Of a stretch of DNA of 64,000 nt, positions 19,215 through 46,304 are shown piece after piece. Origin of the DNA: Flavobacteriia bacterium. Its GTDB lineage: Bacteria; Bacteroidota; Bacteroidia; Flavobacteriales_D; Crocinitomicaceae. Within the stretch, counting starts at the first letter, position 1. Every line of letters begins with the position of its first letter. A program made the position numbers and the translations under genes. The stretch covers positions 30,211-94,210 of the forward strand of contig CANFUT010000008.1 in assembly GCA_947450325.1 (NCBI GenBank). The letters run 5' to 3'. The notes under the pieces are model-generated. The model made no database searches and had not been told where the DNA came from. It saw nothing but the letters and a program-made list of their open reading frames with translations.

Positions 19215-19229
19215 ACTAAATGTTGACTA
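19215..19229 (+). repeat. putative attR core (ACTAAATGTTGACTA)
   Basis: Exact copy of 3529-3543. It is partly reiterated locally (TGACTAAA-TGTTGACTAAA). Confidence 0.7.
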
Positions 19230-29597: not shown

Positions 29598-30236
29598 ATG
29601 TTCAAATATCTTTTTTCACTAACGGTTTTGTTTTGTTCGCTTTCGGTTACAAGCCAAGATACCTTGTTTTTGAATCCTCCAATGGCGCGAAACTCGGTTT
29701 ATTTGGAAGTTTTTGGACAAGGATTGTACAATTCACTTTCTTACGATCGCATTTTGTTTCCTGAGTTTAGAGTAAAACACAGCGCGACGATCGGATTGAC
29801 TTTTATTCCACCTATCGGTTACATGCAAGTAGTGGCGATTCCAGTTTCATACAATTTTATTTTCGGTCAAAGAAAACATCATTTGGAATTGGGTTTGGGA
29901 TTTACGCCGATGATTTTCAAGGAAATTGGTATTCAGAGTACTTTTTATGAACAGGATAATTTTGGAACTGTAACAAGTGTTACAGAGAAGGTCGACAACG
30001 TAAATTTGTTTTTCTACCTGACACCTAAAATTGGTTACCGTTTTCAAAAACCTGAAGGTGGATTTTTCTTCCGTGCAACACTTACACCACCAGTCGCAGG
30101 AATAAATATTTGGAGGTATAATTCTACAAGTTCCTATTCGCAATCGCCGTACACTGAACTTTTTACCAATGCAGCATTTTTCGGTAGCCGCATTTATCCC
30201 TGGGCTGGTCTCAGTTTTGGGTATACTTTTGACTAA
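29598..30236 (+). CDS. hypothetical secreted/outer-membrane protein
   Basis: Signal peptide 'LTVLFCSLSVTSQ' and a beta-strand-rich, aromatic-rich composition. Confidence 0.55.
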   Translation: MFKYLFSLTVLFCSLSVTSQDTLFLNPPMARNSVYLEVFGQGLYNSLSYDRILFPEFRVKHSATIGLTFIPPIGYMQVVAIPVSYNFIFGQRKHHLELGLGFTPMIFKEIGIQSTFYEQDNFGTVTSVTEKVDNVNLFFYLTPKIGYRFQKPEGGFFFRATLTPPVAGINIWRYNSTSSYSQSPYTELFTNAAFFGSRIYPWAGLSFGYTFD

Positions 30237-31303
30237 AAATCCAAGGTCATTTGCGTGGCAATTTCTTCTGCTTCCTGCTGAAATCCTGAGATTTGAAATC
30301 CGATCAATCTAATCGGTTTTGAAAGTGGCAACACTTGTTCCATCAATAATTTCCCTGTTTCTTCCACTGAATTTTTTGAAATGAAACGATTGTTTTTGGT
30401 TGTCGAACGCGTGATTTGCGTGAAATCGTTGTATTTCAATTTGATGTTCAATGTTTTTCCACTTTGACCAAATTTCTGGTACCTGGTCCAAAGTCGTTCT
30501 AGAATAAGGTTTGCCTGCATTCTAAATTTCGTTGAGTCAAAAATGTCTAACTCAAAGGTGCTTTCCACCGCGATGCTTTTTCTTTCGCGCTCTGATTCCA
30601 CATTTCTGTTGTCGATTCCTCGCGCGATGTTGTAGAAATATTTTCCTGATTTGCCAAAATGATCTATTAAAAATTCAAGGCTGAAATTTCTCAACGTTTT
30701 GCCATTCGTGATTCCCAATTCGTGCATTTTCAAAGCTGTCACTTTGCCGACACCGAAAAAACGCTCTATCGGAAGCGTATTGATGAAATTGATTCCTTCC
30801 TTGGGGCGAATGATGTAAAGTCCATCTGGTTTGTCTTGATCTGAAGCCATTTTCGCCAAAAACTTGTTGTACGAAACGCCAGCCGAAGCAATCAAATTTA
30901 GCTCGTTTTTGATGTCATTTTTGATGGATTGCGCGATGAACGTGGCAGAATTTAAATCAATTTTATTGAAAGTCACATCCAAAAACGCTTCGTCGAGCGA
31001 AAGTGGCTCAATCTCGTCGGTGTAACGAGAGAAAATCTCATGAATGGCGTTTGAAATTTCTTTGTAGCGCTCAAATCGTGGTCTCACAAAAATCAATTGC
31101 GGACATTTTTTCGCCGCAATCTTGGAACTCATCGCCGATTTCACCCCAAATTTCCGCGCTTCATAACTGGCGGCGGCAATCACACCGCGTTCCGCATTTC
31201 CGCCGACGGCAACCGGTTTTCCGCGCAAATCAGGATTATCCAATTGTTCCACGGAAGCAAAAAAAGCGTCCATGTCAATGTGAATAATTTTGCGGAGTTC
31301 CAT
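30233..31303 (-). CDS. dinB: DNA polymerase IV (Y-family)
   Basis: 'IIHIDMDAFFASVEQ' and 'SLDEAFLDVT'; 356 aa. A TACTTTTG -7-like box at 31308-31315 sits just upstream of the ATG. Confidence 0.95.
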   Translation of the reverse strand: MELRKIIHIDMDAFFASVEQLDNPDLRGKPVAVGGNAERGVIAAASYEARKFGVKSAMSSKIAAKKCPQLIFVRPRFERYKEISNAIHEIFSRYTDEIEPLSLDEAFLDVTFNKIDLNSATFIAQSIKNDIKNELNLIASAGVSYNKFLAKMASDQDKPDGLYIIRPKEGINFINTLPIERFFGVGKVTALKMHELGITNGKTLRNFSLEFLIDHFGKSGKYFYNIARGIDNRNVESERERKSIAVESTFELDIFDSTKFRMQANLILERLWTRYQKFGQSGKTLNIKLKYNDFTQITRSTTKNNRFISKNSVEETGKLLMEQVLPLSKPIRLIGFQISGFQQEAEEIATQMTLDF

Positions 31304-31337
31304 GAATCAAAAGTAAGGATTATTGGTGTGATAAAGG

Positions 31338-31437
31338 TTGGGTTTTTTAAAATTGCATGTTGGTTGATTGCAGTGTTTTTCGGGTTGTAAGTGATTCTAA
31401 CAGATAAAATCACTTCGGTGGAAGTTGGATTTTTTTG
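31338..31437 (-). repeat. dinB-upstream repeat module, copy A (with hairpin 31389-31415)
   Basis: It shares TTGCAGTGTTTTT(C/G)CGG(G/T)TGTAAGTGATTCTAAC(A/G)GATAAAATCACTT with copies at 33969-34077 and 36147-36220. The last 8 codons and stop of ORF 31410..32459 lie inside it. Confidence 0.8.
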
Positions 31438-32459
31438 GTAATTCTTTTAAATTCTACTAATCTAATTTTATTACCTTCTTTTATAATCACACCATTTAAA
31501 AATCGACTATTAATTGGAAAGATATTGTTATTATTTTGAATATCTCGCACGGCTCCATACCAAGAAACTTTATTTATAATTGTGTCTAAAACAATTGGTT
31601 TTCTATTATTGAAATACCCCAAGTAAGTATTTTTATTGTCTGAAAAAAAATGGTAAAGTTGATTTTTACTCACAAAAGCTCCAATAATCATAATGTCTAT
31701 TGTATCGACTAATACCTCAAAGCCTTTATCGTATCCTATAGGATGTTTGATTTCATAATTTCTAGGGTCTTTCGAATATATATCATACCAAGCACAGTCT
31801 AAAAGTTGACTTTTCTGCTTTATTTCATAAAGCTTTTTGGGGTCGTTAATTTTGATCACTTTCGAAAAACCAGAACCATGAGGAAGTGAAGATGTTACAT
31901 AATATGAACCTTTTATTTTATTTACAGATTTAATACTTGTTGCTTCACAACTATAGGTTTTTCTGGTTTTTTTATCTTTGAAATAAACAGCTCCTCCAAA
32001 TTCTCCGCGACTACAAGATTTAATAATGAATTGATTGTCTTCATAAATTGGATAATTTAATTGATAACTCTTATAATTTGTTACGTCCTCTTTTGGTAGC
32101 GATTTGTAAAAATTCCATCGATTGTTTCTCCAATATTTAACAGTGTAAGAATCTGTTACAAACAAAGTATCTTCAGATGTCCAAATCGATTTTACGAATT
32201 TGAGATCAGAGTTCAATAAAATAGTTTTTGCCCTTTCTAAGTTAAATGATTTGTCAAATAAACCAATATTAAAAGAAGTATCATCATAATTTTCAAAATT
32301 GCATATATAACCGTTTTCAAATTGAATAATTTCTTTAACTTCGAATGGCAGTATTACCTCTGATTTTTCGATCACAAAATTTTCAGGAATAAATTCTCCT
32401 ACTTTCTCAGAACAAGAAAGAATAGACAAGATTATTAATATTATTATGGTGTATTTCAA
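31410..32459 (-). CDS. hypothetical lipoprotein (cassette 1)
   Basis: 'IIILIILSILSCSEK' lipobox; 349 aa. No catalytic motif recognised. Confidence 0.6.
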   Translation of the reverse strand: MKYTIIILIILSILSCSEKVGEFIPENFVIEKSEVILPFEVKEIIQFENGYICNFENYDDTSFNIGLFDKSFNLERAKTILLNSDLKFVKSIWTSEDTLFVTDSYTVKYWRNNRWNFYKSLPKEDVTNYKSYQLNYPIYEDNQFIIKSCSRGEFGGAVYFKDKKTRKTYSCEATSIKSVNKIKGSYYVTSSLPHGSGFSKVIKINDPKKLYEIKQKSQLLDCAWYDIYSKDPRNYEIKHPIGYDKGFEVLVDTIDIMIIGAFVSKNQLYHFFSDNKNTYLGYFNNRKPIVLDTIINKVSWYGAVRDIQNNNNIFPINSRFLNGVIIKEGNKIRLVEFKRITKKIQLPPK

Positions 32460-32470
32460 TTGCTAAATGT

Positions 32471-32995
32471 TTAATACCCTTTCTTCTGCAATTCTACTGT
32501 ATCAACTACAAATCCTATTGCCAACAAAATTAAGCCAATTAAACTTAGCAAAAACATTGGACCAGCAAAAGGCCAATGCTGAATCCTAAAAATGTAACAG
32601 ATAATTGAAATCAATATTCCAATTAATTGCGGGACATTAGCACGTTCTGATTTGGGCTTTTTCAAATTGATATCCCAAACTTCTATTGCTAACCAAGTGC
32701 TACCTGAAACGGCAAGAATGATTAGGAAAAATACCAAATTATTCATTTTGTACATCGCAAATACACTAAAGAATACCCAAGATAAAACCATAATTACTTT
32801 TGCTAAATCCTTGATGTTTTTTGATTGCTTTAATCCGTATCGTATCGCATATAGCACTCCAATTGCAATGAAGCTGGTTAGCCTGATCTCAAAATTAATT
32901 GACCAATGTTGGATTTTAAACACATAACCAATTGCCAAAATACAAAGTGCAAGAGCTAAAAGAATAAGAATTATTTTATTTTGTTTGCTAACCAT
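32471..32995 (-). CDS. hypothetical polytopic membrane protein (cassette 1)
   Basis: 174 aa with about 5-6 TM helices. It has a repeated 'F(K/R)IQHW' motif reminiscent of GldL-type N-terminal hairpins. Confidence 0.6.
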   Translation of the reverse strand: MVSKQNKIILILLALALCILAIGYVFKIQHWSINFEIRLTSFIAIGVLYAIRYGLKQSKNIKDLAKVIMVLSWVFFSVFAMYKMNNLVFFLIILAVSGSTWLAIEVWDINLKKPKSERANVPQLIGILISIICYIFRIQHWPFAGPMFLLSLIGLILLAIGFVVDTVELQKKGY

Positions 32996-33091
32996 GTACT
33001 ATTATTTAATCGATACTTATGCTGCAAAGCTAATTAAAACATAGTATGTTTTTTTTATACTATTCATCTTTGTTTAATGTAGTGCTTTGAA

Positions 33092-33178
33092 ATTTCCGCG
33101 CAAATCAGGATTGTCCAATTGCTCCACGGAAGCAAAAAAAGGGTCCATGTCCATGTGAATAATCTTGCGAAGTTCTAT
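33092..33178 (-). pseudogene. relic 5' fragment of dinB (~29 codons), start codon mutated
   Basis: TTTCCGCGCAAATCAGGATTGTCCAATTGCTCCACGGAAGCAAAAAAAGGGTCCATGTCCATGTGAATAATCTTGCGAAGTTCTAT matches the intact gene at 31217-31303. The position of the CAT (ATG) reads TAT (ATA). Confidence 0.8.
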
Positions 33179-33262
33179 GAATCAAAATTAAGGATTATTG
33201 GTGTGATTTAGGTTGAGGTTTTTCGCAACTTGAATGCAAGATGATGACAGTTTTTTCTGTGC
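33092..33262 (-). repeat. dinB-upstream repeat module, copy B (includes dead dinB 5' fragment; no hairpin)
   Basis: It aligns by eye to 31217-31385 at roughly 85-90% identity, then diverges into the mazF 3' end. Confidence 0.8.
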
Positions 33263-33277
33263 CTAAATATCAGTCCA

Positions 33278-33640
33278 TCAGTCTAAATCGACAATAATCG
33301 ACAAATTCTCTTTGATTTTCTCAATTAAATCTGTTGGAATTGATCCTATTTTTTTAATTAATCTTTTATTGTCTATCGCTCGAATTTGATCTATCATGAT
33401 ATCGCAGTGCTCCTGTAAATTCGCCATTCCTTTTTTTAGATGTACTCTTAAAATGTCGGAATCACTTTGAACGTTTGTTGTTATTGGACAAACAATAGTT
33501 GAAGGATGTGGAAGCTTATTTAACAAATTAGTTTGCACTACAAGAACTGGTCTTGTTTTTCCAGGTTCTGTTCCAATTTGTGGATTCAAGTCGGCTATCC
33601 AAATATCGTACTGCTCAATCTGCATAGTCCATGTTTTCAA
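33278..33640 (-). CDS. mazF: MazF/PemK-family endoribonuclease toxin (cassette 2)
   Basis: 'IWIADLNPQIGTEPGKTRPVLVVQ' PemK signature. It overlaps the upstream antitoxin gene, and the likely start is MQIEQYD at 33625. Confidence 0.85.
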   Translation of the reverse strand: MKTWTMQIEQYDIWIADLNPQIGTEPGKTRPVLVVQTNLLNKLPHPSTIVCPITTNVQSDSDILRVHLKKGMANLQEHCDIMIDQIRAIDNKRLIKKIGSIPTDLIEKIKENLSIIVDLD

Positions 33641-33845
33641 AGTCCTTTAGAACGTTCATCGAATCTTTTTTGACTAACTCAGATTCAACTTTAAGTCTTT
33701 TTTCTAAAATTTGTCTTTTTTGAACTTTATTATAATAGTCAAGTGCTTCGTTGATATACCTATTCCTTGGCATGCTAATTTTTGATAGAATCTTTTCAGT
33801 TTCTCCAAATATTGAATCATCTATTTTTAAGGATACAGTTTTCAT
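33615..33845 (-). CDS. ribbon-helix-helix antitoxin (cassette 2)
   Basis: 76 aa. 'KTVSLKIDDSIFGETEKI...RNRYINEALDYY' is an RHH/CopG-like N-terminus, located directly upstream of mazF. Confidence 0.7.
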   Translation of the reverse strand: MKTVSLKIDDSIFGETEKILSKISMPRNRYINEALDYYNKVQKRQILEKRLKVESELVKKDSMNVLKDFENMDYAD

Positions 33846-33968
33846 ATACTTTTATTTGATATCATAAAGGTATATCTTTTTTGTATATATTTTTATATTG
33901 AGACGCAATTTTTTTGTGCATGCAGCACAATTCATTTTCTTTTTCCTTACGATGGGACTTGTAGATTG

Positions 33969-34077
33969 CGGTTTTTTTTTTTTTTTCAAATTGCGTGTTG
34001 GACGCTTGCAGTGTTTTTGCGGGTGTAAGTGTTTCTAACGGATAAAATCACTTAGTTGGAAAGTGGATTTTTGGGAT
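33969..34077 (-). repeat. dinB-upstream repeat module, copy C (hairpin 34026-34054; contains T15 tract)
   Basis: It aligns to 31338-31437. T15 at 33972-33986 replaces the T6 of copy A, and the left hairpin arm has a 1-nt deletion. Confidence 0.8.
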
Positions 34078-34149
34078 CTATTTTTTTGTTCACTCAGAAG
34101 ACAAAAGAAATTTAAAGTTCTTTTTACTATAGTTTTAATATATCACCGC

Positions 34150-35277
34150 TTACAATTTTTGTCTGCTAATCAATTTTAATTGTTTGTCAATAGTGTCTAA
34201 CAAACCATTTGAAAATGTATCGCCGTTCAATTTCCAAAACATCAAGCCACCTAATTTTTTGTCAATGGCATATTGCGTTTTTAGCGCTACTGAAGCTTTG
34301 TCATCAAACGTTACAAAGATTTTTTGTTCTAAATTGTATAAATACGGTGCTTTGGCAATACTGTCCCAATAGTAATTAAAACCTTCTTTTTCAGTGTAAT
34401 TTTCAATTAACTGATTATAATTGACATTTGATTTAAATTTACCTGGCTGACCTAAACCATTGTTTAAACTGTCAACATTTTGCACAACAAATGAATAAAA
34501 TGCAGCACCTATTACTATCTTATTCAAGGGCACTCCTAAACTATCCAAATAGTTAACGGATTTATCTATACTTTCGGATTGATAGGGAGAAGAGAATAAT
34601 GCTGTGTGGTGGCCCGTATGACCACTTTTATCGGAAGGTAAACCGTAAGTCATTAAATTCACAAAGTCAACTAAGGGCATTACATTTTTCCAATCAATAG
34701 ATAAATCAATAAATTCTTTAAATGAATTTGCATCGAAACTGATTTCTGATTTTTTTGGCAGGCTTCTCTTCAGTTCTTGTAAAAGTGCTGTAAAATTTTG
34801 TTTGTCGTTTGGAGATGCCTTGTGGTTTTTATATCCACCGATTACAGGACTTTCCCAATCAATATCAATACCGTCTGCATGATATTCTGCTAACATTTCT
34901 TTCACAGAAATTGCAAATTCTTTCCGACCTGCGTCAGTTGAAAAAACATCTGAACAAGTTTCACATCCGCCCCAACCACCTATAGAAACGAGTACTTTTA
35001 AATGCGGATATGTTTTCTTTAATTCAATACAACGTTTTAATGTGTTTTTGCTATCCTCATTTTTGAAGCCAATTTTATTTCCTTGAAGATAAGTAAAACA
35101 GTAAATGAGATGTGTTAATTTTTCATACTCGAACTTCTCAACCTCTTTTATATCCCCGCGATAAAAACCAACAACTCGAAAAGAATTTGTCTTATTTGAG
35201 TGTTTTCGTACCCGTGTTTGAGAATTACAATTAAAAGTAATTATCAACAGCAAAATTAGAACTGATTTAATTTTCAT
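34150..35277 (-). CDS. GH18 chitinase-like glycoside hydrolase, secreted (cassette 3)
   Basis: 'ADGIDIDWE' (DxxDxDxE catalytic motif), with the signal peptide 'SVLILLLIITFNCNSQ'. Confidence 0.85.
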   Translation of the reverse strand: MKIKSVLILLLIITFNCNSQTRVRKHSNKTNSFRVVGFYRGDIKEVEKFEYEKLTHLIYCFTYLQGNKIGFKNEDSKNTLKRCIELKKTYPHLKVLVSIGGWGGCETCSDVFSTDAGRKEFAISVKEMLAEYHADGIDIDWESPVIGGYKNHKASPNDKQNFTALLQELKRSLPKKSEISFDANSFKEFIDLSIDWKNVMPLVDFVNLMTYGLPSDKSGHTGHHTALFSSPYQSESIDKSVNYLDSLGVPLNKIVIGAAFYSFVVQNVDSLNNGLGQPGKFKSNVNYNQLIENYTEKEGFNYYWDSIAKAPYLYNLEQKIFVTFDDKASVALKTQYAIDKKLGGLMFWKLNGDTFSNGLLDTIDKQLKLISRQKL

Positions 35278-35418
35278 TTGTCTATGCGAGTTTCTTTATT
35301 GTATTATCTCGTTGGCTTAGCTGATGTGATTTTTCCATGCACAAAAATGTACTAAAAAAAGCAAACAACTTACCGGAAAATTAGCCTAGAACTATAGCAA
35401 ATGTTAGCAATAGGCTTT

Positions 35419-35982
35419 TTATTGATAGAATTCATCGTCTTCTTTTTGATAACCTTCATAATAATATGATTGTTCAATTCCTTTAAAGATGACTTCTCTG
35501 TTGTCAATTTCGTTCGTTAAGTTTTGACTAAGCAAAGTTCTTAATTCCAAATCGTTGATTGGACTTCTTTCCATTGCTTGTAGGTAAAGTGTTTTATCTA
35601 CAAATTGCCAGTTTACTAATTTTTTTAGTCTGGTTTTTAAAATCATATCGAGCCAAATTCTCATTGTTCTTCCATTTCCTTCCAGAAAAGGATGGGCAAT
35701 ATTCATTTCAGTATATTTCGCAATAATTTCTTCGAAACTACTTTCTGGCATTTGCTCGATTTTTACTAATATTTCGTTTAAGTACAATGCATTTGCAAAT
35801 CGAAAACCGCCTTTTGAAATGTTTAGCGTTCTAACTTTTCCTGCAAAATCATCTAATCGATCAAATAAATAATGATGAATGTTCTGTAAACCTTTTGTTG
35901 TTCCAATTTCGATTTTTTCAATATCATTGGAATCAAACAAACGATAAGCATTTTCTAAACTTTCCTTATCAATATTCTTCAT
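35419..35982 (-). CDS. fic: Fic-domain protein, class III-like (C-terminal autoinhibitory motif) (cassette 3)
   Basis: '[12 protein letters not shown]' = HxFx(D/E)GNGRxxR. The C-terminal 'SYYYEG' fits the (S/T)xxxE(G/N) inhibitory motif. It is 187 aa. Confidence 0.85.
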
Positions 35983-36146
35983 TTAAAATCAGATTTTAAT
36001 TTATCTGTTTATTGTCAAAAATACTTCAAAAGTTTCTCTTTTACGCATAAAGTAACTACTTTTTAGTCAATTATTCTTGGAATAAATCTAGCATTTAATG
36101 CTGACAAAAATTAAAAATGTGCTTTCGTTACATGAATGTTACAATA

Positions 36147-36220
36147 TGGACGCTTGCAGTGTTTTTGCGGTTGTAAGTGATTCTAACGGATAAAATCACT
36201 TAGGTGGAAATTGAATTTTA
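36147..36220 (-). repeat. dinB-upstream repeat module, copy D (hairpin 36174-36202)
   Basis: TGGACGCTTGCAGTGTTTTTGCGGTTGTAAGTGATTCTAACGGATAAAATCACTTAGGTGGAA. It has a 9-bp stem TAAGTGATT/AATCACTTA. Confidence 0.8.
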
Positions 36221-36260
36221 CCTAAGATTCATTGAATCAATTCCTGTTCATATTACTTCT

Positions 36261-36836
36261 CTATTCAAATGTAATCTTCAATACCTGCCCGTCTTTTTCC
36301 TTGCTCGGACTGAAAACACAATAGATGGTTTTTCCTTTTAAAGTTGAGAGAGATGCAATTCCGACTCCTGGCTTAACATAGATACTCTCAACAGTGCGCA
36401 CGCCAATCCAATCGTTTGGATTTTTTACATAAACTTTGTCAAAACGCACGAATTGTTCGTCATCTGCATATGCGTATAAGCAGTGATAACCATCATCAAC
36501 GAATTTACCGACCGCTATATCAAGATTGTAGTTCTTTTCATCTTCGGCAAAAGTTTGGGACGATTCAAAACAAGTTAATCTGTCTTTTTGATTCAATAAT
36601 ACTTGTGTGTAAGCTGTAGAATCAAAGCTACAATTTAGGAAAACAGCGTCCGTATTGACAGTGTGAAAAGTGAAATTAAAAGGCTGTGTCTTCAAAGTTA
36701 TTTCGTGCGTTCCTTCTGGAATTTGGAGACTGTCTGACCCTTGAACGATCGTGAGAAATGTTTGTTTAGTGCTGTCTTGCTGTCCGAAAGAGATTGAAGT
36801 TATAAGTAGACTTAAAAGTAGAATATTAAATTTCAT
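36261..36836 (-). CDS. hypothetical secreted protein (cassette 4)
   Basis: Signal peptide 'NILLLSLLITSISFGQ'; 191 aa. Confidence 0.55.
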   Translation of the reverse strand: MKFNILLLSLLITSISFGQQDSTKQTFLTIVQGSDSLQIPEGTHEITLKTQPFNFTFHTVNTDAVFLNCSFDSTAYTQVLLNQKDRLTCFESSQTFAEDEKNYNLDIAVGKFVDDGYHCLYAYADDEQFVRFDKVYVKNPNDWIGVRTVESIYVKPGVGIASLSTLKGKTIYCVFSPSKEKDGQVLKITFE

Positions 36837-36842
36837 TTGACT

Positions 36843-37430
36843 TTAGTTTTTCACACAACGAACAGCAAAACCACTTACACGATAAAAACCTAATTGAACA
36901 ACCCCTGCTTGATCGGGTTTAAGATTCATTGTCCAAGCAGCTGGATCTAGAGCCACTTCGGAAGTCCACCAAGTTGCACCACGTGGGTTTCGAATTTCTC
37001 CATTTGTTCCTTTTTCTGGCGCTGGAATTGCTGAAAATCCACTTGAATTATCCGCGCCTGTATTTGGTGCTTTCCATTTTTCAAGTGATTTCATTTTATT
37101 TCCCGCGCTTTCGACACCTCCTAAATATGTAATTAATTCGTTCCATTCTGCAACAGTTGGAATGTGCCAACCTGCTGGACATGCTTCAAAAGCAGATTCG
37201 TAGGTGTACATTCTTCCATATGTTTCACATTCATGACACCAACTTTTTTCAACTTCATAATTTAAGTTCTCAGCAAACCACCATTGATTACCAATTTTAA
37301 CTGTAATGTATTCTTGTTTATCTCGTGGATCGACAAATGTGTCGAATTTGGGTGTCGAACTTTGATCCCCCGTAAATGAGAAAAGGAAAGTTAAAATGAG
37401 TGTTACTACCGATATTTTGAAAATTTTCAT
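36843..37430 (-). CDS. FISUMP-domain protein (Fibrobacter succinogenes major paralogous domain) (cassette 4)
   Basis: 'WWFAENLNY', 'GRMYTY' and 'CPAGWHIPTVAEWNELI' are hallmarks of the TIGR02145-type domain. Confidence 0.7.
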   Translation of the reverse strand: MKIFKISVVTLILTFLFSFTGDQSSTPKFDTFVDPRDKQEYITVKIGNQWWFAENLNYEVEKSWCHECETYGRMYTYESAFEACPAGWHIPTVAEWNELITYLGGVESAGNKMKSLEKWKAPNTGADNSSGFSAIPAPEKGTNGEIRNPRGATWWTSEVALDPAAWTMNLKPDQAGVVQLGFYRVSGFAVRCVKN

Positions 37431-37488
37431 TTTAAATAAAATTCTTAAAATTAAAGTTTGCTAGGCTGACGCTAAAATGCAACCAACC

Positions 37489-37851
37489 TCAAATCGTCTG
37501 CAAAATCTGCCCCAATCGAATCAACTCATTTTTCACTTGATTCATTCCAATAAGACCACCTGACATTCCTGAGCTTTCTTGTCTCACAGCCAATTTTATT
37601 TCATCAGAATCACTGGAGCCACCAGTAACAATCGTGAATTTGAAATATTTTACAAACGCACCAAAAAGGATGCGCATTACTCTGTTTCCCTTTGTATACA
37701 CCGCATGACCAATTTGTCCTTCTTTCATAGTATAGCCAGAGGACACTAGTAATTGATCTATTTTTTTATCCAATTCATCTTTTGAAATTCCTGAATAAAC
37801 GTGAACAAAATTTGATTTAGTAGTGACATCGTTTTTAATAAAATAACCCAT
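37489..37851 (-). CDS. hypothetical protein (cassette 4)
   Basis: 120-aa ORF on the same strand as its neighbours. No motif recognised. Confidence 0.45.
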   Translation of the reverse strand: MGYFIKNDVTTKSNFVHVYSGISKDELDKKIDQLLVSSGYTMKEGQIGHAVYTKGNRVMRILFGAFVKYFKFTIVTGGSSDSDEIKLAVRQESSGMSGGLIGMNQVKNELIRLGQILQTI

Positions 37852-37917
37852 TTTGAATCGTTTTCATGTTTGTCCGATAAAAATAGAATAAATAATGCAA
37901 ATCATTAGCGTCCGCTT

Positions 37918-38207
37918 AAAATCTTTTGTTCCTTTTGCTTGATCAAAACGAACCCAAAAATCAAGGCTGAGTCATCAAGTTAAAGCGCAAATTATCGAAC
38001 GAAATAAAATTCTTTCCTCAAGCGCTTTATTTTAAAAGGTTCTGAAAACGTGATTTTGTCGGTGATCTACTCCACTAGCGTTGCGTAGCTTCCTCCAAAA
38101 GTCTACTTTTTCAGTGCGCCTTTAAAACCCTTTCTTCCAAGGCCGATTGTCTAAAACTATTAATTTACGCACCGCAGAGTTTAAATTACCGCCAACAATT
38201 TGACTCA
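37918..38207 (-). repeat. ~290-bp structured intergenic repeat, copy 1 (reverse orientation)
   Basis: It is the reverse complement of the 48477-48786 and 52153-52460 copies. Shared blocks include CGGCCTTGGAAGAAAGG, CTGAAAATGTAGACTTTTGGAGGAAGCTA, AAATAAAGCGCTTGA and TTTGCGCTTTAACTTGATGACTCAGCCTTGATTTTTGGGTTCGTTTTGATCAAGCA. Confidence 0.85.
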
Positions 38208-38235
38208 TTATTTTTACAGGAACAAAAAGCAATTT

Positions 38236-38622
38236 TTAAAGATAAGCTTGATTCCGCAATTTAATCTGCAAAAACCATTCATAATTAAAATTCCTTGTTC
38301 TATCGAAAATGGTGAAGCTATCCAGTACGAAACCAATGAAAAACTGACCGAAAGTGAGCATCTTGACAACGCCTAAACCAACTTCACCCAAAACAAAGCG
38401 ATCAACGCCAAAAATACCCAGTGGAAACGCCGTCCAAAATAGGGTGGAAGGGTTCTTGAAAGGAATGAGTTGAAATGTATCAAAATCTGCTTCATTCAAG
38501 CCAAGCATGTAATCTTTTACAGCATCCCAAGCAACGCTAGGAAAATAGTTTTCATGGAAAATGAAATATGCCTGGACATCATTTTTTCTTTTTTGTGTTG
38601 GTGGATTTTCGCTTGTATTCAT
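38236..38622 (-). CDS. TM2-domain membrane protein
   Basis: 'AFPLGIFGVDRFVLGEVGLGVVKMLT' is a TM2-type double-helix motif. Confidence 0.65.
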   Translation of the reverse strand: MNTSENPPTQKRKNDVQAYFIFHENYFPSVAWDAVKDYMLGLNEADFDTFQLIPFKNPSTLFWTAFPLGIFGVDRFVLGEVGLGVVKMLTFGQFFIGFVLDSFTIFDRTRNFNYEWFLQIKLRNQAYL

Positions 38623-38757
38623 TTTTTAGGTGATTGTCAAATTCCTTTTAAACGTTGCTCAAATATGCAATTTTCACAGGGAAAGAACAACTTTATTTTT
38701 CATAGCTGATGCACAACGCTTTGCAAATAAGTTGCTTATTTATTGTAATATATATTT

Positions 38758-39543
38758 TTATTCTTTTTTAAATTTAATAATCACGTTAGACAAAGTTACT
38801 TTTTGATCCTTATTAAATACATTTAATATCTCAATCAATTCAAGGTCAAAATGCTTTCCTTTTGAGTTTGGATGAAGCGTTTTTTTAGGCCATCTCATTG
38901 AAAATAAAGTCTCCCAATTATCTTGACCGTTTTTTATTTCCATTTTTAGCGTATTTGACGTTAAGAAGTATCTACCCGAATGATTGATTCCATTGATTGA
39001 CACACTTAAACTATCATTATTAAAGAAACTAATTTTGGTACTATATGCACTAAATACAGAATCTAAGATTTGATCATCTTTGTCAAACGGAATCATTTTT
39101 TCCTTTATCCAAGTTCCAATAAGCAAAGATTTTAGTTGTTTAAGATTACCATCCTCACATTGACATTTTCCAAAGGGAACGGGATCTATAGGTTTTATTT
39201 TACCGATTGATGACTTAATGAAATTACCATTTTTATCGTATTTTTCTTTAACTACTTTTGAAGGTTGCAAAAGTAACGTCCATGTATTCACATCATCTAA
39301 AAAACCTTTTTCCTTCAATTCCCCATTTCTATAATACTTTTCGTAAGGACCATACAAAAAACCATGCACATAAGTTTTGTATAATTTTGGTTTTCCATTG
39401 GAATAGTATTTGAAGACTTTTCCGTGAAGACATGTGTTAGAGTCAATAGAATTCGGAATAACATCTTGACCAAAGGATTGTCCCATGCTAAAAACTAGTA
39501 TCAATATTGTAACGTAGCTCTTCATTTGCAGATTATAATGCAT
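38758..39543 (-). CDS. secreted protein with YwqK/MORN-variant repeats
   Basis: 'KVFKYYSNGKPKLYKTYVHGFLYGPYEKYYRNGELKEKGF' (YwqK-antitoxin-like repeats). The signal peptide suggests a start at MKSYVTIL (39525). Confidence 0.55.
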   Translation of the reverse strand: MHYNLQMKSYVTILILVFSMGQSFGQDVIPNSIDSNTCLHGKVFKYYSNGKPKLYKTYVHGFLYGPYEKYYRNGELKEKGFLDDVNTWTLLLQPSKVVKEKYDKNGNFIKSSIGKIKPIDPVPFGKCQCEDGNLKQLKSLLIGTWIKEKMIPFDKDDQILDSVFSAYSTKISFFNNDSLSVSINGINHSGRYFLTSNTLKMEIKNGQDNWETLFSMRWPKKTLHPNSKGKHFDLELIEILNVFNKDQKVTLSNVIIKFKKE

Positions 39544-39552
39544 ATTCCTTTA

Positions 39553-40134
39553 TCATTTAATTTTGAAAGTTTTTAGCGATTGAAGCATAATTGACATATT
39601 TTTCTTTAAATCTTCAGTTTGAGACGCTTCTGCTGTAAGGAAGTAAAAAAATCCTTGTTCATCACTGTTCAAAATGAAACTAATTATTTCCGTTTCACCG
39701 TAATTTCCAGTATTTGATTTAGTATGAATGAAATAGGCAGGATAACTTAATACATCTGTTTTTCCCGATTCTACCATTTTTAATCCCTTAGATTGATTTT
39801 TTGATAATTTTAATAAGTAATTATATTCAGTTTGTAAGTTGTTTGAATTACTTTGGCTTTTGATTTTTTGAATAGAAATCACATCAAAATGACCACCTTT
39901 ATCGGCTGGTGAAATTGCATTTGCCATGATAATCATGTTCTTTCCATCACAATCTTCATCTTCACTTTTCCAATTCCACCAAATAGGAATCATAAGAGAG
40001 AAACTATTGGAATCCAATACCACTTTTTGCTTTTCAAATTCAACAGTAGTATCAATGAATTGATTTAAAGTAATGTCTTCCTGAGCACAAGAACTAAGTG
40101 CAAATAGAAAAAGAAATATAGAGAAATAGTTCAT
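39553..40134 (-). CDS. hypothetical lipoprotein
   Basis: 'IFLFLFALSSCAQ' lipobox; 193 aa. Confidence 0.55.
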   Translation of the reverse strand: MNYFSIFLFLFALSSCAQEDITLNQFIDTTVEFEKQKVVLDSNSFSLMIPIWWNWKSEDEDCDGKNMIIMANAISPADKGGHFDVISIQKIKSQSNSNNLQTEYNYLLKLSKNQSKGLKMVESGKTDVLSYPAYFIHTKSNTGNYGETEIISFILNSDEQGFFYFLTAEASQTEDLKKNMSIMLQSLKTFKIK

Positions 40135-40164
40135 AAGTAGTTTAACGTTTTTGATTACGACATT

Positions 40165-40337
40165 CCGCCGCCTTAATGTTAAGTTGTAAATATATTGAAT
40201 TATCCTTTTAGTAAATTCTGACTTAGAAAAATAAAACCAGCTATTGAGTGAAATCAGCTGTTATGTATCTTAAAAATTTGTCTCATAAAGTGACGCTGTC
40301 GCCCACCACAATCAATGGCATTTTAGTGCCGGTCATA
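40165..40337 (-). repeat. decayed duplicate of the helicase 3' end plus its downstream sequence
   Basis: Block 40182-40212 matches 41061-41091 (AGTTGTAAATATA..GAATTATCCTTTTAGT). Block 40287-40335 matches 41213-41262 (AAAGTGAC.CTGTCGCCCACCACAATCAAT.GC.TTTT.G.GC.GGTCAT), which is helicase coding sequence. Confidence 0.75.
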
Positions 40338-41007
40338 CAAATTTCGATTCTCTTGTTAATTTACTTTTGTCTAAGTTCAAGTCATTACAGAACCAGTCAG
40401 TCAATACTTTTTCAATCTCACTTCTGTTAAATGACTTTGGGTTTCGTCTTGATTTTAGATAATTTTCTCTTGTCATTTTTTCGGCAACTTGTCCAACGCT
40501 TTGCAAGTCAAGTTTGTTTCCGATTTTATTTACTAACCAAAGTCCAGCGATTGAAAAACCAAGTCCTAAAAGTCCGATTTGCCAATTAAAGTAAAGTCCA
40601 ATTAAAGATGCGATAAAAATAGTTGCCAGTGTTCCTGTAACCCAATGAGGCGGGCGCAAAATGTTAAGTTTAAAACCTAAATGTTTTTCTAATTTCTTAG
40701 TTCTTGAACGTCTGCTTTGTCGTGGTAAAAGGTCAACAAGAATGGAATCAGGCGAAATTGTTTTACTGTCAATTTGAAGTGTTGTTGATATTGCATCACG
40801 AAGTTTGTAAAATGCTTGTTGGCTTGTGCAATCGTCTGAATTGTCAAGCTGGATTTTGTTTGCAATGTGGTCGCAAAGTTGTCCAAAGGTCGTAATTTGC
40901 AATAACTCATCACCAACAAACTTGATGTCAAATGAATCCTCAACTTTTTCAAGTAAGTCTTCAAGGTCTTCAAAGTCGATATCTTTAAGTTCGTATTCTG
41001 CTGTCAT
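40333..41007 (-). CDS. hypothetical membrane protein with ACP-like N-terminal domain lacking the phosphopantetheine Ser
   Basis: 'DFEDLEDLLEKVEDSFDIKFVGDELLQITTFGQLCDHI' resembles ACP helices II-IV without a DSL serine. Two TM helices follow: 'TLATIFIASLIGLYF' and 'LLGLGFSIAGLWLV'. Confidence 0.5.
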   Translation of the reverse strand: MTAEYELKDIDFEDLEDLLEKVEDSFDIKFVGDELLQITTFGQLCDHIANKIQLDNSDDCTSQQAFYKLRDAISTTLQIDSKTISPDSILVDLLPRQSRRSRTKKLEKHLGFKLNILRPPHWVTGTLATIFIASLIGLYFNWQIGLLGLGFSIAGLWLVNKIGNKLDLQSVGQVAEKMTRENYLKSRRNPKSFNRSEIEKVLTDWFCNDLNLDKSKLTRESKFV

Positions 41008-41127
41008 AGTATTTCTTGTAACTTGCCGCAGATTTACGCAATAGCGGCAACTTCGTAGTTAGTTGTAAATATATAGAATTATCCTTTTAGTGCTTTCCGG
41101 CTGAGAAAATTAAAACCATTTCCAAAC

Positions 41128-43011
41128 CTACCCCATAAACTCCCAAGCACTCCCATAACTCCCCACACTTTCACTGTGCAACAAAAACGCTCCAAAAAAC
41201 GGATCGTTGCCAAAAGTGACACTGTCGCCCACCACAATCAATTGCGTTTTGGCGCGGGTCATGGCGACGTTCATTCGGCGGTAATCTTTCAGGAATCCCA
41301 AATTGCATTCGTCGTTGGAGCGTACGAGGGAAATGAAGACAATTTCGCATTCTTGTCCTTGAAAGCTGTCCACGGTGGAGATGCGCAGGTTTTTGGGGAA
41401 ACGTTCTTTTGCGAGCGCCACTTGACCAGAGTAGGGCGTAATCAAGGCGCAATGGTCGAGGTTGAATTGGTTTTGCTCCATGATTTTTTCGATGATTTCC
41501 AGTTCGCCCACGTTCGATAAACTGCCACTTTCAGACGCTTGTTCCTCTTGAAAACCAGTTCCTGCGGTGTCGAAATATTGAAAATGAATGCCTGTGTTTT
41601 GCAGAAACGGCGGTGTTTCCAATTTTCCTTCGTAGAAATAATTATTCGGAAAATCTACAATCGCTTGTCGCATGCGGTATTGCGTTCGGAGCAGGTATTT
41701 TTGCGGATGTTTTTCGAGCATCACTTCCAAAAAGGATTTGTTGTAGCCGTTTTTCATCGCTTGCTCTGAAATCACAGTCGGCGGCAATTGCAAATGATCT
41801 CCAGCCAACACCAAACGTTGCACATTTTTGATCGCCACCCAAGCCAAACTTTCCAAACATTGTCCTGCTTCGTCAATCAACAAGGTGTTGAATTCCATTT
41901 TTTGCAGCGATTTGTCGTTCAAACCAACAGGTGTTCCGCAGATTACTTTGGTTTCAGAAATCCATTTTTCAGCATAAAAATCTTGCAAGGCGCGAATTTC
42001 TTTGCGGATGTTTTTCACTTCTTGAATCAACAATTTGCGCTGATCGCGGTCGTCTTTGCCAAAATGACGTTTGTATTGGTGCGACATTTTGCGGTATTCT
42101 TCCGCTTGGATGCGCATTTTTTTGATTTGCTTTTGCTCGTTTCCAAGCGCCATTTTCCCTTCCAAGGTATAAGGCAAAAGTTCAGGCGACATTTTGGTTT
42201 GATTGCCAATTCTCAGTGTCGAAATACCTTGTTTGATGAGTTGCAAAGCGATGTGATCTGTGGCAGCATTGCTCGGCGCGCAAACCAATACTTTTTCGCC
42301 ATTTTTGACCAATTCCGCAATCGACGCCACCAAAGTCGTTGTTTTTCCAGTTCCCGGAGGACCGTGAACAATCACAATCGGTTCATTTCCATTGATTTTC
42401 GAAAGCGCTTCTTGCTGACTTTCATTCAGTTTTTCGTTGATTTCAACGGCATGTTTTTTAGGTTCGGGCAAAAAATCGGCGTTATTTTGGTGCACATACG
42501 TGAAAAATGGAAATGCATCAGCAGATTTTCCGTTGTCCAAAGATTGCAAAACGGCAGTGATGATTTCCTGCGTTTTGGTGTCGGGCGTCAATTTGATTCC
42601 TACACCGTGGTCTTCGATCCAATCTGGAAAATCGGGCGCAAAAATGCGTGCTTCGCCATTGCCACCGTTGATTCCGAGTAAAATTCCCTTGATGGAAGTT
42701 TCATTTTCAAAAAACAATTCGATGGCAGTTCCGTCTCTGAAATTGTCGGTTTGTTGACTTTGCGGAATCTTGAACGAAAATTCGGGATATTCCGCAAAAC
42801 CGTAAGATTTTCGTGTGATTTTAATCGGATGCAAGGCCAATCCATCTCTTTTCAAACTTTTGATTCCGCCAGCATCTTTGACAGAAAATCGTTCAACTTG
42901 TGCTTTTTCTTCAAGTATTAAATTGTCAAGTAAAAACTGAATGTGCGGATCTTTGGCTTGCATGGAATGAATTTGACGCAAATTTCGTAGAATTTTCGGA
43001 AGCTTTGCCAA
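41128..43011 (-). CDS. SF1 helicase, Upf1/DNA2-like (AAA_11/AAA_12 type)
   Basis: 'VHGPPGTGKTTT', 'LLIDEAGQ', 'GDHLQLPPT', 'TVDSFQGQECEIVFISLVRSN' and 'NVAMTRAK'. Confidence 0.85.
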   Translation of the reverse strand: MAKLPKILRNLRQIHSMQAKDPHIQFLLDNLILEEKAQVERFSVKDAGGIKSLKRDGLALHPIKITRKSYGFAEYPEFSFKIPQSQQTDNFRDGTAIELFFENETSIKGILLGINGGNGEARIFAPDFPDWIEDHGVGIKLTPDTKTQEIITAVLQSLDNGKSADAFPFFTYVHQNNADFLPEPKKHAVEINEKLNESQQEALSKINGNEPIVIVHGPPGTGKTTTLVASIAELVKNGEKVLVCAPSNAATDHIALQLIKQGISTLRIGNQTKMSPELLPYTLEGKMALGNEQKQIKKMRIQAEEYRKMSHQYKRHFGKDDRDQRKLLIQEVKNIRKEIRALQDFYAEKWISETKVICGTPVGLNDKSLQKMEFNTLLIDEAGQCLESLAWVAIKNVQRLVLAGDHLQLPPTVISEQAMKNGYNKSFLEVMLEKHPQKYLLRTQYRMRQAIVDFPNNYFYEGKLETPPFLQNTGIHFQYFDTAGTGFQEEQASESGSLSNVGELEIIEKIMEQNQFNLDHCALITPYSGQVALAKERFPKNLRISTVDSFQGQECEIVFISLVRSNDECNLGFLKDYRRMNVAMTRAKTQLIVVGDSVTFGNDPFFGAFLLHSESVGSYGSAWEFMG

Positions 43012-43096: not shown

Positions 43097-45110
43097 TTGA
43101 ACAATCAAGAAAAAGAAAAACAATCGCTTCACGCAATATTTCGAAAATTAGCGCAAGACAGTGAAGATGAAGAATTGCGGTTCTTGATTGATTTGGTGAA
43201 TTACTTCCGACCGAAAGGAAAAAGTCAGAATCAGTATTTTTCAATTCGAGCATTGATCGATTTTTTGAATGAAAATCCAACATTCATTGATCCTTTTCGG
43301 GCTTATTTGTACGAAGTTTTTGAAGGAAAAACGTTCAGAAATCTGCTTTCAGACGCAGGAATTTTGCAAAACACGCACTTTTTTCAAGAAATCAAGAAAA
43401 GGTCGATTGCCAAGATTTTACCGTTTCAACCAGATAGAAATACGCTTGAATTTGTATTGAATCAAATTTTTTATTCGCGGAAAGATTACGATTGGTTGTC
43501 TAAGATTCCGACAGATGAAATGCTCGCACTGTATGAATTGTTGCAGTTGGGTTCGATGTACGACCGCAAAACGGAGCAATCGATGCTCAATGAGTTGCTG
43601 CAATCGATGCGATTGATCATGCAACGAATGAGCGGCAGGGCCTTGGAAACGGATGTCATCAAAATGATTCCAGAATATGAAAATTACGACAGTCCTTTTG
43701 AAGTCTTGGAGAAAGAATTTGATTTGATTGAAGCCACGTTGATTTCCGATGAAACGTATTTTTTGAATTCCGAGGATATTGATTACAAGCAGATTAATAT
43801 CATTTTGGTTCAATGCGAAGATTTTGTCAATCAAGCATATAAAAACAGTTCGCGCTTCGGAATTTCATTGAATGTGAATCAAAGTTTATTGAGAATTAGA
43901 CAACAGATTAAAAGACTGAAATCCATTTTTCCGTATTTGGTACTTGATTTAGAAGAAGATAAAAAGCTCAAAAGCGTTTCTTTTTTCCTGTGTTTGGTGA
44001 AATACAATTGCATGAAAAACAACGTGCGCAAATTGATCAATGAAAGCACGCAGTTGATTGCCTACGAAATCACGCAACACACGGCAAAAACGGGTGAACA
44101 TTACATCACCAAAGGAAGCAATGAATATTTCAACATGTTGTCCAGCGCGATTGGCGGCGGCGTGATTGTGGGAATTTTGTGCGTGATAAAATTGTTGCTT
44201 TCTAAGGTGGAAACGAGCGATTTTGGTCATGCGATTTTGTACAGTTTAAATTATGCGATTGGATTTACAGCGATTTATTTGTTGGGTTACACCTTGGCAA
44301 CAAAACAACCAGCAATGACGGCAGCGGCCTTGATTCAGTCCATTGAAAAAGACCAATTCAATACCAAAGACCAAAAATATAAATCCTTCGCGAATTTATT
44401 TGCAAGGCTTTTTCGTTCGCAGTTTATTGCGTTTGTCGGCAATGTGATTTTCGCTTTTCCGGTGGCACTTTTGATTATTTATGGCGTTGATTACGCTTTT
44501 GGATTGTCGATTCCCGATGAAAAATGGGATCATTTGTTGACTGATTTAAGTCCGATTCATTCCGCGGCGATTTTCCATGCGGCGATTGCAGGATTGTTCT
44601 TGTTCCTGTCGGGAATTATTTCTGGAAGTGTTTCCAATTCAAACAAGCACAACAAATTGTATTTCAGAATTCAAGAAAATCCGACCTTGAAAATGAGTTT
44701 TGGAAAACGAAAAACGGCGCAAATTGCCCAATGGTTTGAACGACGATGGGCGGGAGTTTCTTCCAACATTTGGTTTGGCTTTTTTCATGGGAACAACCGC
44801 TTCCATCGGCATCTTTTTGGGACTGAATTTAGACATTCGCCACATCACTTTTGCCAGCGGAAATCTCGCTTTGGGATTGTACGGAAATGGTTTTCAAATT
44901 TCAAATTCCATGCTTTTTTGGGGCATTTTTGGCATTGGAATTATCGGCTTTGTCAATTTTATCGTCAGCTTTTTACTGTCGCTTTTCCTCGCTTTTCGTT
45001 CGCGAAATATCCCAACAAGCGACTTGAGATTTTTATTCAAAGCCGTTTGGAATCATTTCAAAGCGCATCCGATGTTGTTTTTCTTTCCGGTCAGATCCAA
45101 AAGAAATTGA
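43097..45110 (+). CDS. large polytopic membrane protein (resembles the 'putative site-specific recombinase transmembrane protein' family; tentative), apparently frameshifted
   Basis: Frame 1 is plausible up to about 44785 and then turns into His/Arg/Phe-rich nonsense. The ORF 44700..45110 in another frame continues with a TM-like sequence. Removing one T from T6 (44780-44785) joins ...NIWFGFF to MGTTASIGIFLGLNLDIRHITF.... Confidence 0.6.
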
Positions 45111-46304
45111 TTATGAAACCAAATTAGATTCTCTGTCAAATCGTTTGTAAGAAAACAAAATCGCAAGCAAAGCCAAACTGGTCATGACGCCAAAACTTAA
45201 AAGCAACAATCCTATATCAAGTGTTCCTGCAATCAATTCTTTGGTTGCCAAAACGACATTTACGACTGGAATACAAGCTGTAATTGCATTCAATTCAATT
45301 CCTGGGAAAAATCCGACCATCGCAGGTAAAATCATCACCATATTCAACGGCGTGATAATACTTTGCGCTTCTTTGAAACTTTTCGCGTAAACGGTAATTG
45401 GAATCATGACACCTGCGAAAAATACGATCAATGGAATCAGTAGCAAGTACATCAACAAGATAAATTTTACGGTCAAAATTTGATGGATAATCTCCAACAA
45501 TTTTGGATCCTTAACAATTTGAAAAACTTCGATGGAGAGAAAAATTCCCAATAGAGTGAAAGTTGCCGCCATGACACCTGATAGCACCACAACGCCCATT
45601 TTTCCTAGTAAAATTTGCAATCTTGAAACGGGAGTTGTCAGCAAAGTTTCCAATGTTCCGCGTTCTTTTTCACCTGTAAAAAGGTCAATCGCAGGATACA
45701 TGCAACCGATAAATCCAAAAACGATGAACAAGTAAGGCAAAAATCCACCGATTAATTTTCCGACTGTTTCTTTGTCTGAAGCGACATTTCTGTAGTCAAA
45801 AGCAATCGGAGACAAGGAAGCAGGATCTACTTTCAACGCAACATATCGTTTTGCCTTTTCCATTTCCTCAAAAGCGTTTAAAAATGTTTCGGCGCGCTCT
45901 TTCATGCCGAGTTCGGTTGCGTTGAAGAAAACTTTGAATTTGGAAGTTTTATTTTCAATGGAATTTTTGGCAAAATCTTCAGGCACAAAAACGCCAAACT
46001 GCAGTCTGTTTTCTTGCACGTGTTTTTGAACAGTTGCTGAATCGTGGTAAACAAAAACCTTTTTCTTACCGAGTATTTTCGGCATGTTTTCGATGGTTTT
46101 TACAAAATTCATGTTTTCTGGCGTCACGACAATTCCGATATTCACCGTTTTGTTGGCAACATCTTTGGCGAATCCTTCTGAGACTTTCAAAAATACCGTC
46201 ATAATCACAGGAAAGATAAAAATAGGAATGACAATCATGGTCATCAATGTTCTTCTATCTCTCAGTGTATCTTTGAGTTCTTTCTTAAAAATAGTTGAAA
46301 TCAT
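45111..46304 (-). CDS. ABC-2 type transporter permease (NatB-like)
   Basis: 397 aa with an N-terminal TM, a large extracytoplasmic loop and 5 C-terminal TMs. It overlaps the ATPase gene stop by 4 nt. Confidence 0.8.
   Translation of the reverse strand: MISTIFKKELKDTLRDRRTLMTMIVIPIFIFPVIMTVFLKVSEGFAKDVANKTVNIGIVVTPENMNFVKTIENMPKILGKKKVFVYHDSATVQKHVQENRLQFGVFVPEDFAKNSIENKTSKFKVFFNATELGMKERAETFLNAFEEMEKAKRYVALKVDPASLSPIAFDYRNVASDKETVGKLIGGFLPYLFIVFGFIGCMYPAIDLFTGEKERGTLETLLTTPVSRLQILLGKMGVVVLSGVMAATFTLLGIFLSIEVFQIVKDPKLLEIIHQILTVKFILLMYLLLIPLIVFFAGVMIPITVYAKSFKEAQSIITPLNMVMILPAMVGFFPGIELNAITACIPVVNVVLATKELIAGTLDIGLLLLSFGVMTSLALLAILFSYKRFDRESNLVS

Follow-up and report, generated by a model that had tools for sequence, protein, structure and literature searches.

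Integron attC sites are imperfect palindromes of 57–141 bp whose outer ends carry complementary R''(RYYYAAC) and R'(GTTRRRY) boxes; their structure is conserved, with compensatory changes and extrahelical bases, and their sequence varies. Where attC sites are clustered without an integrase, they are named CALIN arrays. To our knowledge, integrons are almost absent in Bacteroidota. The typical cores of dif, lox and att sites have inverted arms of 9–13 bp and an asymmetric centre of 6–8 bp, which is identical between partner sites.

The locus considered here lies in the window, i.e. the whole stretch of 64,000 nt that was analysed, and comprises an island between dinB and a helicase gene in which a short palindrome recurs. 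This palindrome marks the joints of an integrase-free cassette island upstream of dinB and is unlikely to be a switch shared by dinB and the toxin genes. The result removes the tempting but mistaken idea of a translesion polymerase under common regulation with toxin modules.

The palindrome and the island that carries it

The palindrome, TAAGTGATT-CTAAC(A/G)GATAA-AATCACTTA, occurs in the window in three copies in direct orientation (A, C and D, Table 1), with none expected by chance. The exact pattern AAGTGATT-N9-13-AATCACTT matches at 31389–31415 and 36175–36201 (none expected, 100 shuffles). A scan of the 64-kb window with the 29-mer TAAGTGATTCTAACGGATAAAATCACTTA, allowing up to three mismatches, returns exactly three matches (none expected), with two, one and zero mismatches in copies A, C and D, respectively. 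The sequence feature is genuine and not random, and it lies in three of the four junction modules, as the first-pass annotation had stated. All three copies fall within one 92-nt direct-repeat family of 78–85% identity, the 29-bp core being embedded in a repeat of ∼75–95 nt.

Read as double-stranded DNA, the 29-mer has 11-bp inverted arms and a 7-bp asymmetric centre, ATCCGTT. The palindrome is near perfect, with 12 of the 14 positions in each half symmetric, part of them in the ‘loop’. Folded as a single strand, the gene-sense (minus) strand forms a stem that reaches 12 bp, one G·U pair included, with a UCYGU pentaloop; on the opposite strand, a C·A clash holds the stem to 9 bp. On the gene-sense strand, this extends the stem of 8–9 bp with an 11-nt loop that was described initially. 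In copy C, the 1-nt deletion reported earlier proved to be a substitution: the left arm reads GTGTTT, with T in place of A, and both arms are of equal length. Other details of that description hold: the location 86–220 nt upstream of dinB, mazE and fic agrees with the distances measured to the start codons (Table 1), copy A overlaps the stop codon of the preceding ORF (31410–31412, in the right arm) and no T-run follows the palindrome on the transcribed strand.

The genes from dinB through the helicase are all on the minus strand. The island measures ∼9.8 kb, with a GC content of 0.30–0.36 vs 0.35–0.44 in the flanks. Its order in the transcription sense is 191, D, fic, GH18, C, mazEF, B, 174, 349, A and dinB, where numbers designate ORFs and capitals junction modules. 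Several of the seven small ORFs in the distal part have signal-peptide-like N-termini. No recombinase gene was found with Pfam between dinB and the helicase, either in the window or in the complete island of NI882. About half of the block joints are without a palindrome; in the window, none was found at the joints fic/GH18 and 174/B, nor anywhere in 36261–41007. Module B is a decayed 131–164-nt duplicate of the dinB 5' end and promoter, with the start codon mutated to ATA.

Other repeats occur in and around the island. Next to the helicase, the 224-aa gene lies between copies of another direct repeat, GTTGTAAATATAT.GAATTATCCTTTTAGT, and is also flanked by a 50-nt duplicate of the helicase 3' coding end, which mirrors the dinB pseudo-5' end at the opposite island edge. 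A GTTGTAA heptamer is common to both junction repeat families (few cases). A second interspersed repeat of ∼260–290 nt, 81–88% identical between copies, occurs in the window and in L008, L014 and L015; one copy is an insertion between the 120-aa and TM2 genes that three relatives lack. The repeat matches no Rfam family and might represent a MITE or a family of structured RNAs not yet described.

The same two genes, helicase and dinB, bound the island in relatives, with the following contents in transcription order (hp, hairpin): helicase, 423, 165, hp, dinB in MiH; 199, hp, fic, GH18, hp, dinB in EUL_059; 82, hp, mazEF, B' (dinB-remnant), yhcG nuclease, hp, dinB in NI882; 180, hp, B' (dinB-remnant), GH18, hp, dinB in ME2014; 180, hp, fic, mazEF, dinB in RE-26jul; and 180, hp, mazEF, dinB in L033. 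In L020 (DinB 89% identical), a single palindrome lies 18 nt after the helicase stop and ∼85 nt before the dinB ATG, an arrangement that appears to be the empty state of the island. Compared with EUL_059, the window is longer by a 2,638-bp segment that has copies A and C at its ends, and the single hairpin in EUL_059 has the left flank of A joined to the right flank of C. Block 1 is absent in EUL_059, and a yhcG-type nuclease gene takes its place in NI882. In L042, the joints fic/mazE and mazF/dinB have no palindrome. Module B is the old mazF–dinB junction, the undisturbed state of which, mazF next to an intact dinB without a palindrome, persists in L033 and L042.

Table 1. Coordinates of the features discussed, in the window unless another locus is named
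Feature	Position	Strand	Remarks
Integrative element, ∼15.7 kb	3529–19229		genes include HTH_17 excisionase-like, AAA_25 and DUF6371/zinc-ribbon primase-like
15-bp direct repeat ACTAAATGTTGACTA	3529–3543, 19215–19229		bounds the integrative element
Tyrosine integrase gene	3589–4818		in the integrative element
Serine resolvase gene	5997–6743		in the integrative element
dinB (DNA polymerase IV)	30233–31303	-	conserved gene, one island edge
Junction module A	31343–31434	-	native dinB-upstream spacer: palindrome, C-rich tail, distal promoter region
Palindrome copy A, TAAGTGATTCTAACAGATAAAATCACTTC	31388–31416	-	∼85 nt upstream of dinB ATG; upstream ORF stop in right arm
Block 1	31410–32995	-	two function-unknown ORFs (349/339 aa, 174 aa)
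Module B	33093–33256	-	dinB pseudo-5' end (∼90 nt coding), promoter and tail; no palindrome
mazF/mazE	33278–33845	-	toxin–antitoxin block
Junction module C	33981–34072	-	∼50 nt dinB-proximal spacer, palindrome, ∼18 nt; 85% identical to module A
Palindrome copy C	34026–34054	-	arm substitution GTGTTT; 180 nt upstream of mazE; 95 nt past GH18 stop
GH18 glycosidase gene	34150–35277	-	block separable from fic
fic	35419–35982	-	block separable from GH18; fic/GH18 joint without palindrome
Junction module D	36146–36224	-	∼30 nt spacer, palindrome, ∼20 nt
Palindrome copy D, consensus 29-mer	36174–36202	-	191 nt upstream of fic; 58 nt past 191-aa ORF stop
Distal island part	36261–41007	-	seven small ORFs, TM2-domain gene, no palindrome
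Interspersed repeat, ∼260–290 nt	37919–38209	+	copy between 120-aa and TM2 genes
Interspersed repeat, ∼260–290 nt	48470–48784	-	
Interspersed repeat, ∼260–290 nt	52169–52419	-	
Direct repeat around 224-aa gene	40182–40256, 41061–41118		matching segments
Duplicated helicase 3' coding end	40287–40336, 41213–41262		50 nt
SF1 helicase gene (AAA_11/AAA_12)	41128–42963	-	conserved gene, other island edge
PF10136 protein gene	43520–45127	+	535 aa
Canonical bidirectional terminator	52485–52519		perfect 17-bp inverted repeat
Palindrome pair	L009: 3217–3245, 3397–3425		direct, 151 nt apart, no intervening ORF
Flavo-1 RNA (RF01705)	L014: 2978–3066; L017: 3677–3765		50–52 bits, above gathering score

Copies beyond the window and the operator reading

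A one-genome-per-species scan with GTGNTTCTAACNGATAAAATCAC, a pattern in which the loop and most of both arms are fixed, so that sampling is biased for most copies, gave 16 loci in six MAGs (four Crocinitomicaceae, one Flavobacteriia and one labelled Chryseobacterium), with one to four pattern-matching copies per genome. The window organism is represented by identical contigs in three metagenome samples. A scan of JGI metagenomes added one true copy, in a divergent spacer (L024), and returned one apparently unrelated locus in four records (L025–28), GTGGTT...AAACAC, on a contig with ribosomal-protein-like ORFs. Scanned viral contigs contained no palindrome, BLAST of module D against plasmid and phage records gave no match, and a covariance model built from 24 copies detected no further or diverged members in 280 kb.

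Each of the 24 copies lies between genes or, at most, overlaps a stop codon. Besides the dinB locus and the divergent spacer, they occur in four species between genes for a PBP4-type carboxypeptidase and arginine decarboxylase (an arm containing the stop codon), in three species between a TonB-like gene and a Flavo-1 RNA, as two tandem copies between DUF4159 and pseudouridine synthase genes, and singly after an esterase gene; an M48 peptidase is a further neighbour. No function is common to the neighbours across contexts. In L014 and L017, the Flavo-1 RNA is ∼25 nt from the lone palindrome, in the same strand sense and upstream of the TonB-like gene. The two direct palindromes of L009 may be an empty or decayed two-site unit. 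Arginine decarboxylase loci at 86–90% identity have other neighbours and no palindrome.

Between loci, 27–29 of the 29 core positions are identical and the flanks have diverged beyond ∼60%. A weaker likeness extends over ∼20 nt on the dinB-proximal side (CC.CAAAA..CTG) and, in some cases, over ∼18 nt on the other side. Since this ∼20-nt tail is common to copies at different loci, the family has spread by copying and not by convergence. Lone copies are stable in three to four species, with no variable content beside them; placed next to housekeeping genes, they indicate that the repeat alone makes no hotspot. Collectively, the palindrome defines a new repeat family, low-copy, homogeneous and intergenic, which is confined to a narrow clade of Crocinitomicaceae MAGs.

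These distributions bear on the proposal, made in the first-pass annotation, that the palindrome is a dimeric transcription factor operator co-regulating dinB, mazEF and fic. The near-perfect dyad that continues into the ‘loop’ suits an operator, as do the position 85–190 nt upstream of start codons and the restriction of variation to the dyad centre and one half-site position (A/T). Against this, no variation is seen in the 11 central bases, an unusual trait in an operator spacer, and dinB and mazE keep their promoters without the palindrome in close strains. Where DinB is 96% identical (L033, L042 and L044–46), the same dinB promoter directly follows mazF across a spacer of ∼90 nt without palindrome, and in such strains, e.g. 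L042, mazE follows fic with no palindrome between them. Nor is it present at DinB loci of 74–87% identity (L021–23 and L029–31). Its absence upstream of dinB in relatives had itself been named beforehand as an outcome that would refute the proposal. Likewise, the arm variant GTGTTT travels with GH18 upstream, whatever gene lies downstream, the common flanking tail points to copying, and the other copies neighbour genes for arginine decarboxylase, PBP4, the TonB-like protein, pseudouridine synthase and the M48 peptidase. Such unrelated housekeeping neighbours do not make up an SOS or stress regulon.

[quoted passage not shown] Neither is found in the 29-mer, the nearest being GGA-N5-TCA with one mismatch, and so the proposed comparison with published LexA-type motifs gave no match. 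Shared with these operators are the palindromic form and the location upstream of dinB in a Bacteroidota genome; the differences lie in sequence and spacing, in the lack of retention at dinB in relatives (L021–23, L029–31 and the dinB spacer of L033 and L042–46) and in the location of the other copies away from SOS genes. A shared operator for dinB, mazEF and fic is unlikely, and as an account of the palindrome we give this reading very little credence. A sigma-54 promoter reading of TGGACGCTTGCA was rejected, the spacing being wrong.

Origin of the array copies

The locus presents an empty site, nested duplicates, mosaic arrays and breakpoints near the palindrome. The duplicated pieces of the dinB-upstream spacer are nested in length: ∼30 nt in D, ∼50 nt in C, ∼100 nt in the fic-proximal copy of L013, which includes part of the promoter, and >220 nt in B and L006b, where dinB coding sequence accounts for ∼90 nt. 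In the window, L006 and L010, the dinB 5' remnant breaks off at one shared position (window 31218) and carries an identical internal deletion, which indicates a single origin and fits insertion with duplication. At the other island edge, the helicase 3' fragment and the second repeat around the 224-aa gene are without palindrome, which shows that flank duplication on insertion is general here. Taken together, the nested duplicates, the palindrome-less joints and this second-repeat edge suggest that array copies are by-products of a splicing process that copies the target spacer.

Change points between mosaic arrays were mapped by comparison of relatives. The window and L016 share 99.5% identity from the palindrome through GH18 but just 86% over the 44 nt towards dinB. 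With L010, the mazEF tract reaches no further than the far edge of the palindrome. With L019, identity is complete over 134 nt, up to position 7 of the palindrome, and ∼88% beyond. In module B, homology with the intact counterparts is lost at the boundary between hairpin and tail (TTA|C), and the GTGTTT arm accompanies the upstream GH18 in three genomes. The mapped change points place the exchanges within ∼30 nt of the dinB-proximal arm of the palindrome. These positions fit recombination in the longest identical stretch of the module, and a specific cut site would fit equally: the three change points and the truncation of module B are all on one side of the palindrome.

The explanation that we favour, with confidence near the midpoint, is that the palindrome is the core of a rare genus-specific repeat, the array copies being spacer duplicated at insertions, with subsequent recombination between copies. 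One copy would have been native to the helicase–dinB spacer, and in this lineage the spacer would have become a hotspot for the splicing of foreign gene blocks. Each splice would duplicate a piece of the dinB-upstream spacer, of differing length; the resulting direct repeats would then constitute portable homology, and recombination between them would add, remove and swap blocks among strains. The exchange is probably homologous or homology-facilitated illegitimate recombination that needs no dedicated enzyme. As to the primary role of the palindrome, it may be an intergenic 3'-end-type structural or protein-bound element, and not a promoter operator. If this modest account is true, the island is a well-bounded example of integrase-free growth, in which a splice copies the target spacer and the copies guide further exchange, and it would be useful for annotating such hotspots in Bacteroidota.

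The one-sided change points, the lone copies without variable content and the biased sampling count against this mechanism, as does a further observation: passive duplication does not account for a 29-mer kept at 27–29 of 29 positions in unrelated loci. Because the core is kept while the flanks have diverged, something constrains the whole core, its asymmetric centre included. A constraint at the RNA level could be envisaged, with the upstream transcript ending in a stable hairpin that would serve as stabiliser, processing site or insulator and would for that reason be kept with each acquired block. The gene-sense strand folds better than its complement, with z-scores of -2.2 to -4.8 for its 12-bp stem with G·U against 9 bp on the other strand. 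In five of seven contexts, the palindrome follows a co-directional unit, namely the helicase, PBP4, ORF349 (the last two with the stop in an arm), GH18 or the Flavo-1 RNA; moreover, the arm variant travels with the upstream gene, and the island sense strand is without canonical terminators. However, the compensatory changes for which a check had been advised are absent: there are none in 24 copies, and nine of the 24 break the same mid-stem pair without rescue. In L009 (two copies) and L015, the orientation relative to genes is opposite, and a purely structural role leaves the invariant loop unexplained. No U-tract follows the palindrome, although the genome uses canonical terminators, e.g. 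the bidirectional one at 52485–52519 (Table 1), flanked by an A-run and a T-run (AAAAAACGGCTTTAGAA/TTCTAAAGCCGTTTTTT). We regard this RNA 3'-end role as improbable.

Related RNA and coding possibilities were also considered. An intrinsic terminator was rejected, the stem having two G–C pairs and the sense strand continuing as CAACCGCAAAAAC; a terminator scan did not report the palindrome on either strand. Rfam gave no match at the palindromes (whole window at the gathering threshold; 31000–36600 at E ≤ 10), and no tRNA or tmRNA genes were found. A micro-ORF across the module was rejected, as it is not conserved in the lone contexts.

Comparison with recombination sites, REP elements and hotspots

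The constraint on the core could also be that of a recombination site. Under this reading, the 29-mer, with arms TAAGTGATTTT and AGAATCACTTA around ATCCGTT, would serve a dedicated site-specific recombinase, the gene of which would lie elsewhere in the genome, as its core site; the enzyme would cut and rejoin it to insert and excise circular gene blocks in an integron-like manner with no linked integrase. The 11-7-11 layout fits tyrosine-recombinase cores as an architectural match only, and the centre is conserved like the arms: it is identical in 21 of 24 copies, and only its central base varies (C/T, three copies). The direct orientation of all array palindromes at block joints, the A-to-C indel bounded by hairpins and the one-sided change points, with the truncation of B, point the same way, and toxin–antitoxin blocks occur in the island, as in sedentary integrons. 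On the other side, neither of the two complete islands (window and NI882) encodes a recombinase, about half of the joints are without a site, spacer duplicates of 30 to >220 nt are unlike precise exchange, and lone palindromes stay stable in three to four species. The window has a single tyrosine integrase, which is part of a separate element (Table 1); it was rejected as the enzyme of the palindrome because that element has its own, different, 15-bp att. A protein matching PF10136 ‘Site-specific recombinase’ (E 7.5e-112), the gene of which adjoins the helicase and is conserved in L020 and L023, was judged to be a membrane protein with a misleading family name; it also matches a formate/nitrite transporter family and lies outside the island. 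A dedicated recombinase of this kind, with its cut-and-rejoin exchange of circular blocks, is a minority prospect.

It is tempting to go further and to propose that the 29-mer is the crossover core of a cassette-exchange system without linked integrase in Flavobacteriales. It would then be a functional analogue of attC or pdif, with the recombinase encoded elsewhere, a sedentary array beside a translesion polymerase gene and lone copies as unoccupied landing sites. This extended proposal is doubtful. If the 29-mer were a dedicated recombination core, it would represent a new cassette-capture system in Bacteroidota. Duplication of the spacer with recombination between copies, a dedicated site and an RNA 3' end are not mutually exclusive.

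The first-pass annotation had raised a recombination hairpin of the attC or REP type. This stands as far as copies at block joints are in direct orientation with breakpoints at or near them; it falls on the defining features of attC and REP and on the many joints without palindrome. An integron attC was rejected: the palindrome has 29 bp, its outer ends are TAAGTG/CACTTA, R'' and R' boxes are absent, the sole TTCTAAC is in the loop without a partner and the flanks are not complementary. Where attC keeps structure over sequence, nine of 12 pairs are invariant here, none shows a compensatory change and such variation as occurs breaks pairs; where each attC cassette has one site, several block joints here have none; and IntI, optional for a CALIN, is missing, as no recombinase occurs in the window or NI882 islands. 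REP elements are high-copy, and here there are three copies in 64 kb, at one locus, and one to four pattern matches per species genome. No RAYT (Y1 transposase) gene was found beside the palindrome in ∼8 distinct contexts (adjacent genes only). All 24 copies are nonetheless short imperfect extragenic palindromes, as REPs are.

With attC sites and CALINs, the locus shares directly oriented hairpin repeats between promoter-poor accessory blocks, toxin–antitoxin genes included, a repeat that moves with the 3' end of the upstream gene and the lack of an adjacent integrase, as in CALINs. It differs in that the palindrome is nearly invariant in sequence, whereas attC is variable, and in that it also occurs singly beside housekeeping genes. 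Like REP/BIME elements, it is a short imperfect intergenic palindrome, lineage-specific, often just past a stop codon and possibly a hotspot of recombination or insertion; unlike them, it has a handful of copies per genome instead of tens to hundreds, and it has no 5' GTAG-type tetranucleotide. The ∼11-bp inverted arms and an asymmetric centre within 6–8 bp recall dif, lox, att and pdif sites. The Xer-dependent pdif modules of Acinetobacter plasmids are also small blocks, often toxin–antitoxin, bounded by sites without a linked recombinase; in contrast, the palindrome has no sequence similarity to dif, is direct and not alternating, is chromosomal and is missing from many joints. Finally, integrase-free hotspots between core genes resemble the island in their low-GC small accessory genes (toxin–antitoxin, Fic, PDDEXK nuclease and secreted proteins), in a content that differs in every relative and in the absence of mobility genes. 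What distinguishes the dinB–helicase island from such hotspots is the presence of duplicated spacer modules with a conserved palindrome at the joints, together with pseudo-ends of both flanking genes.
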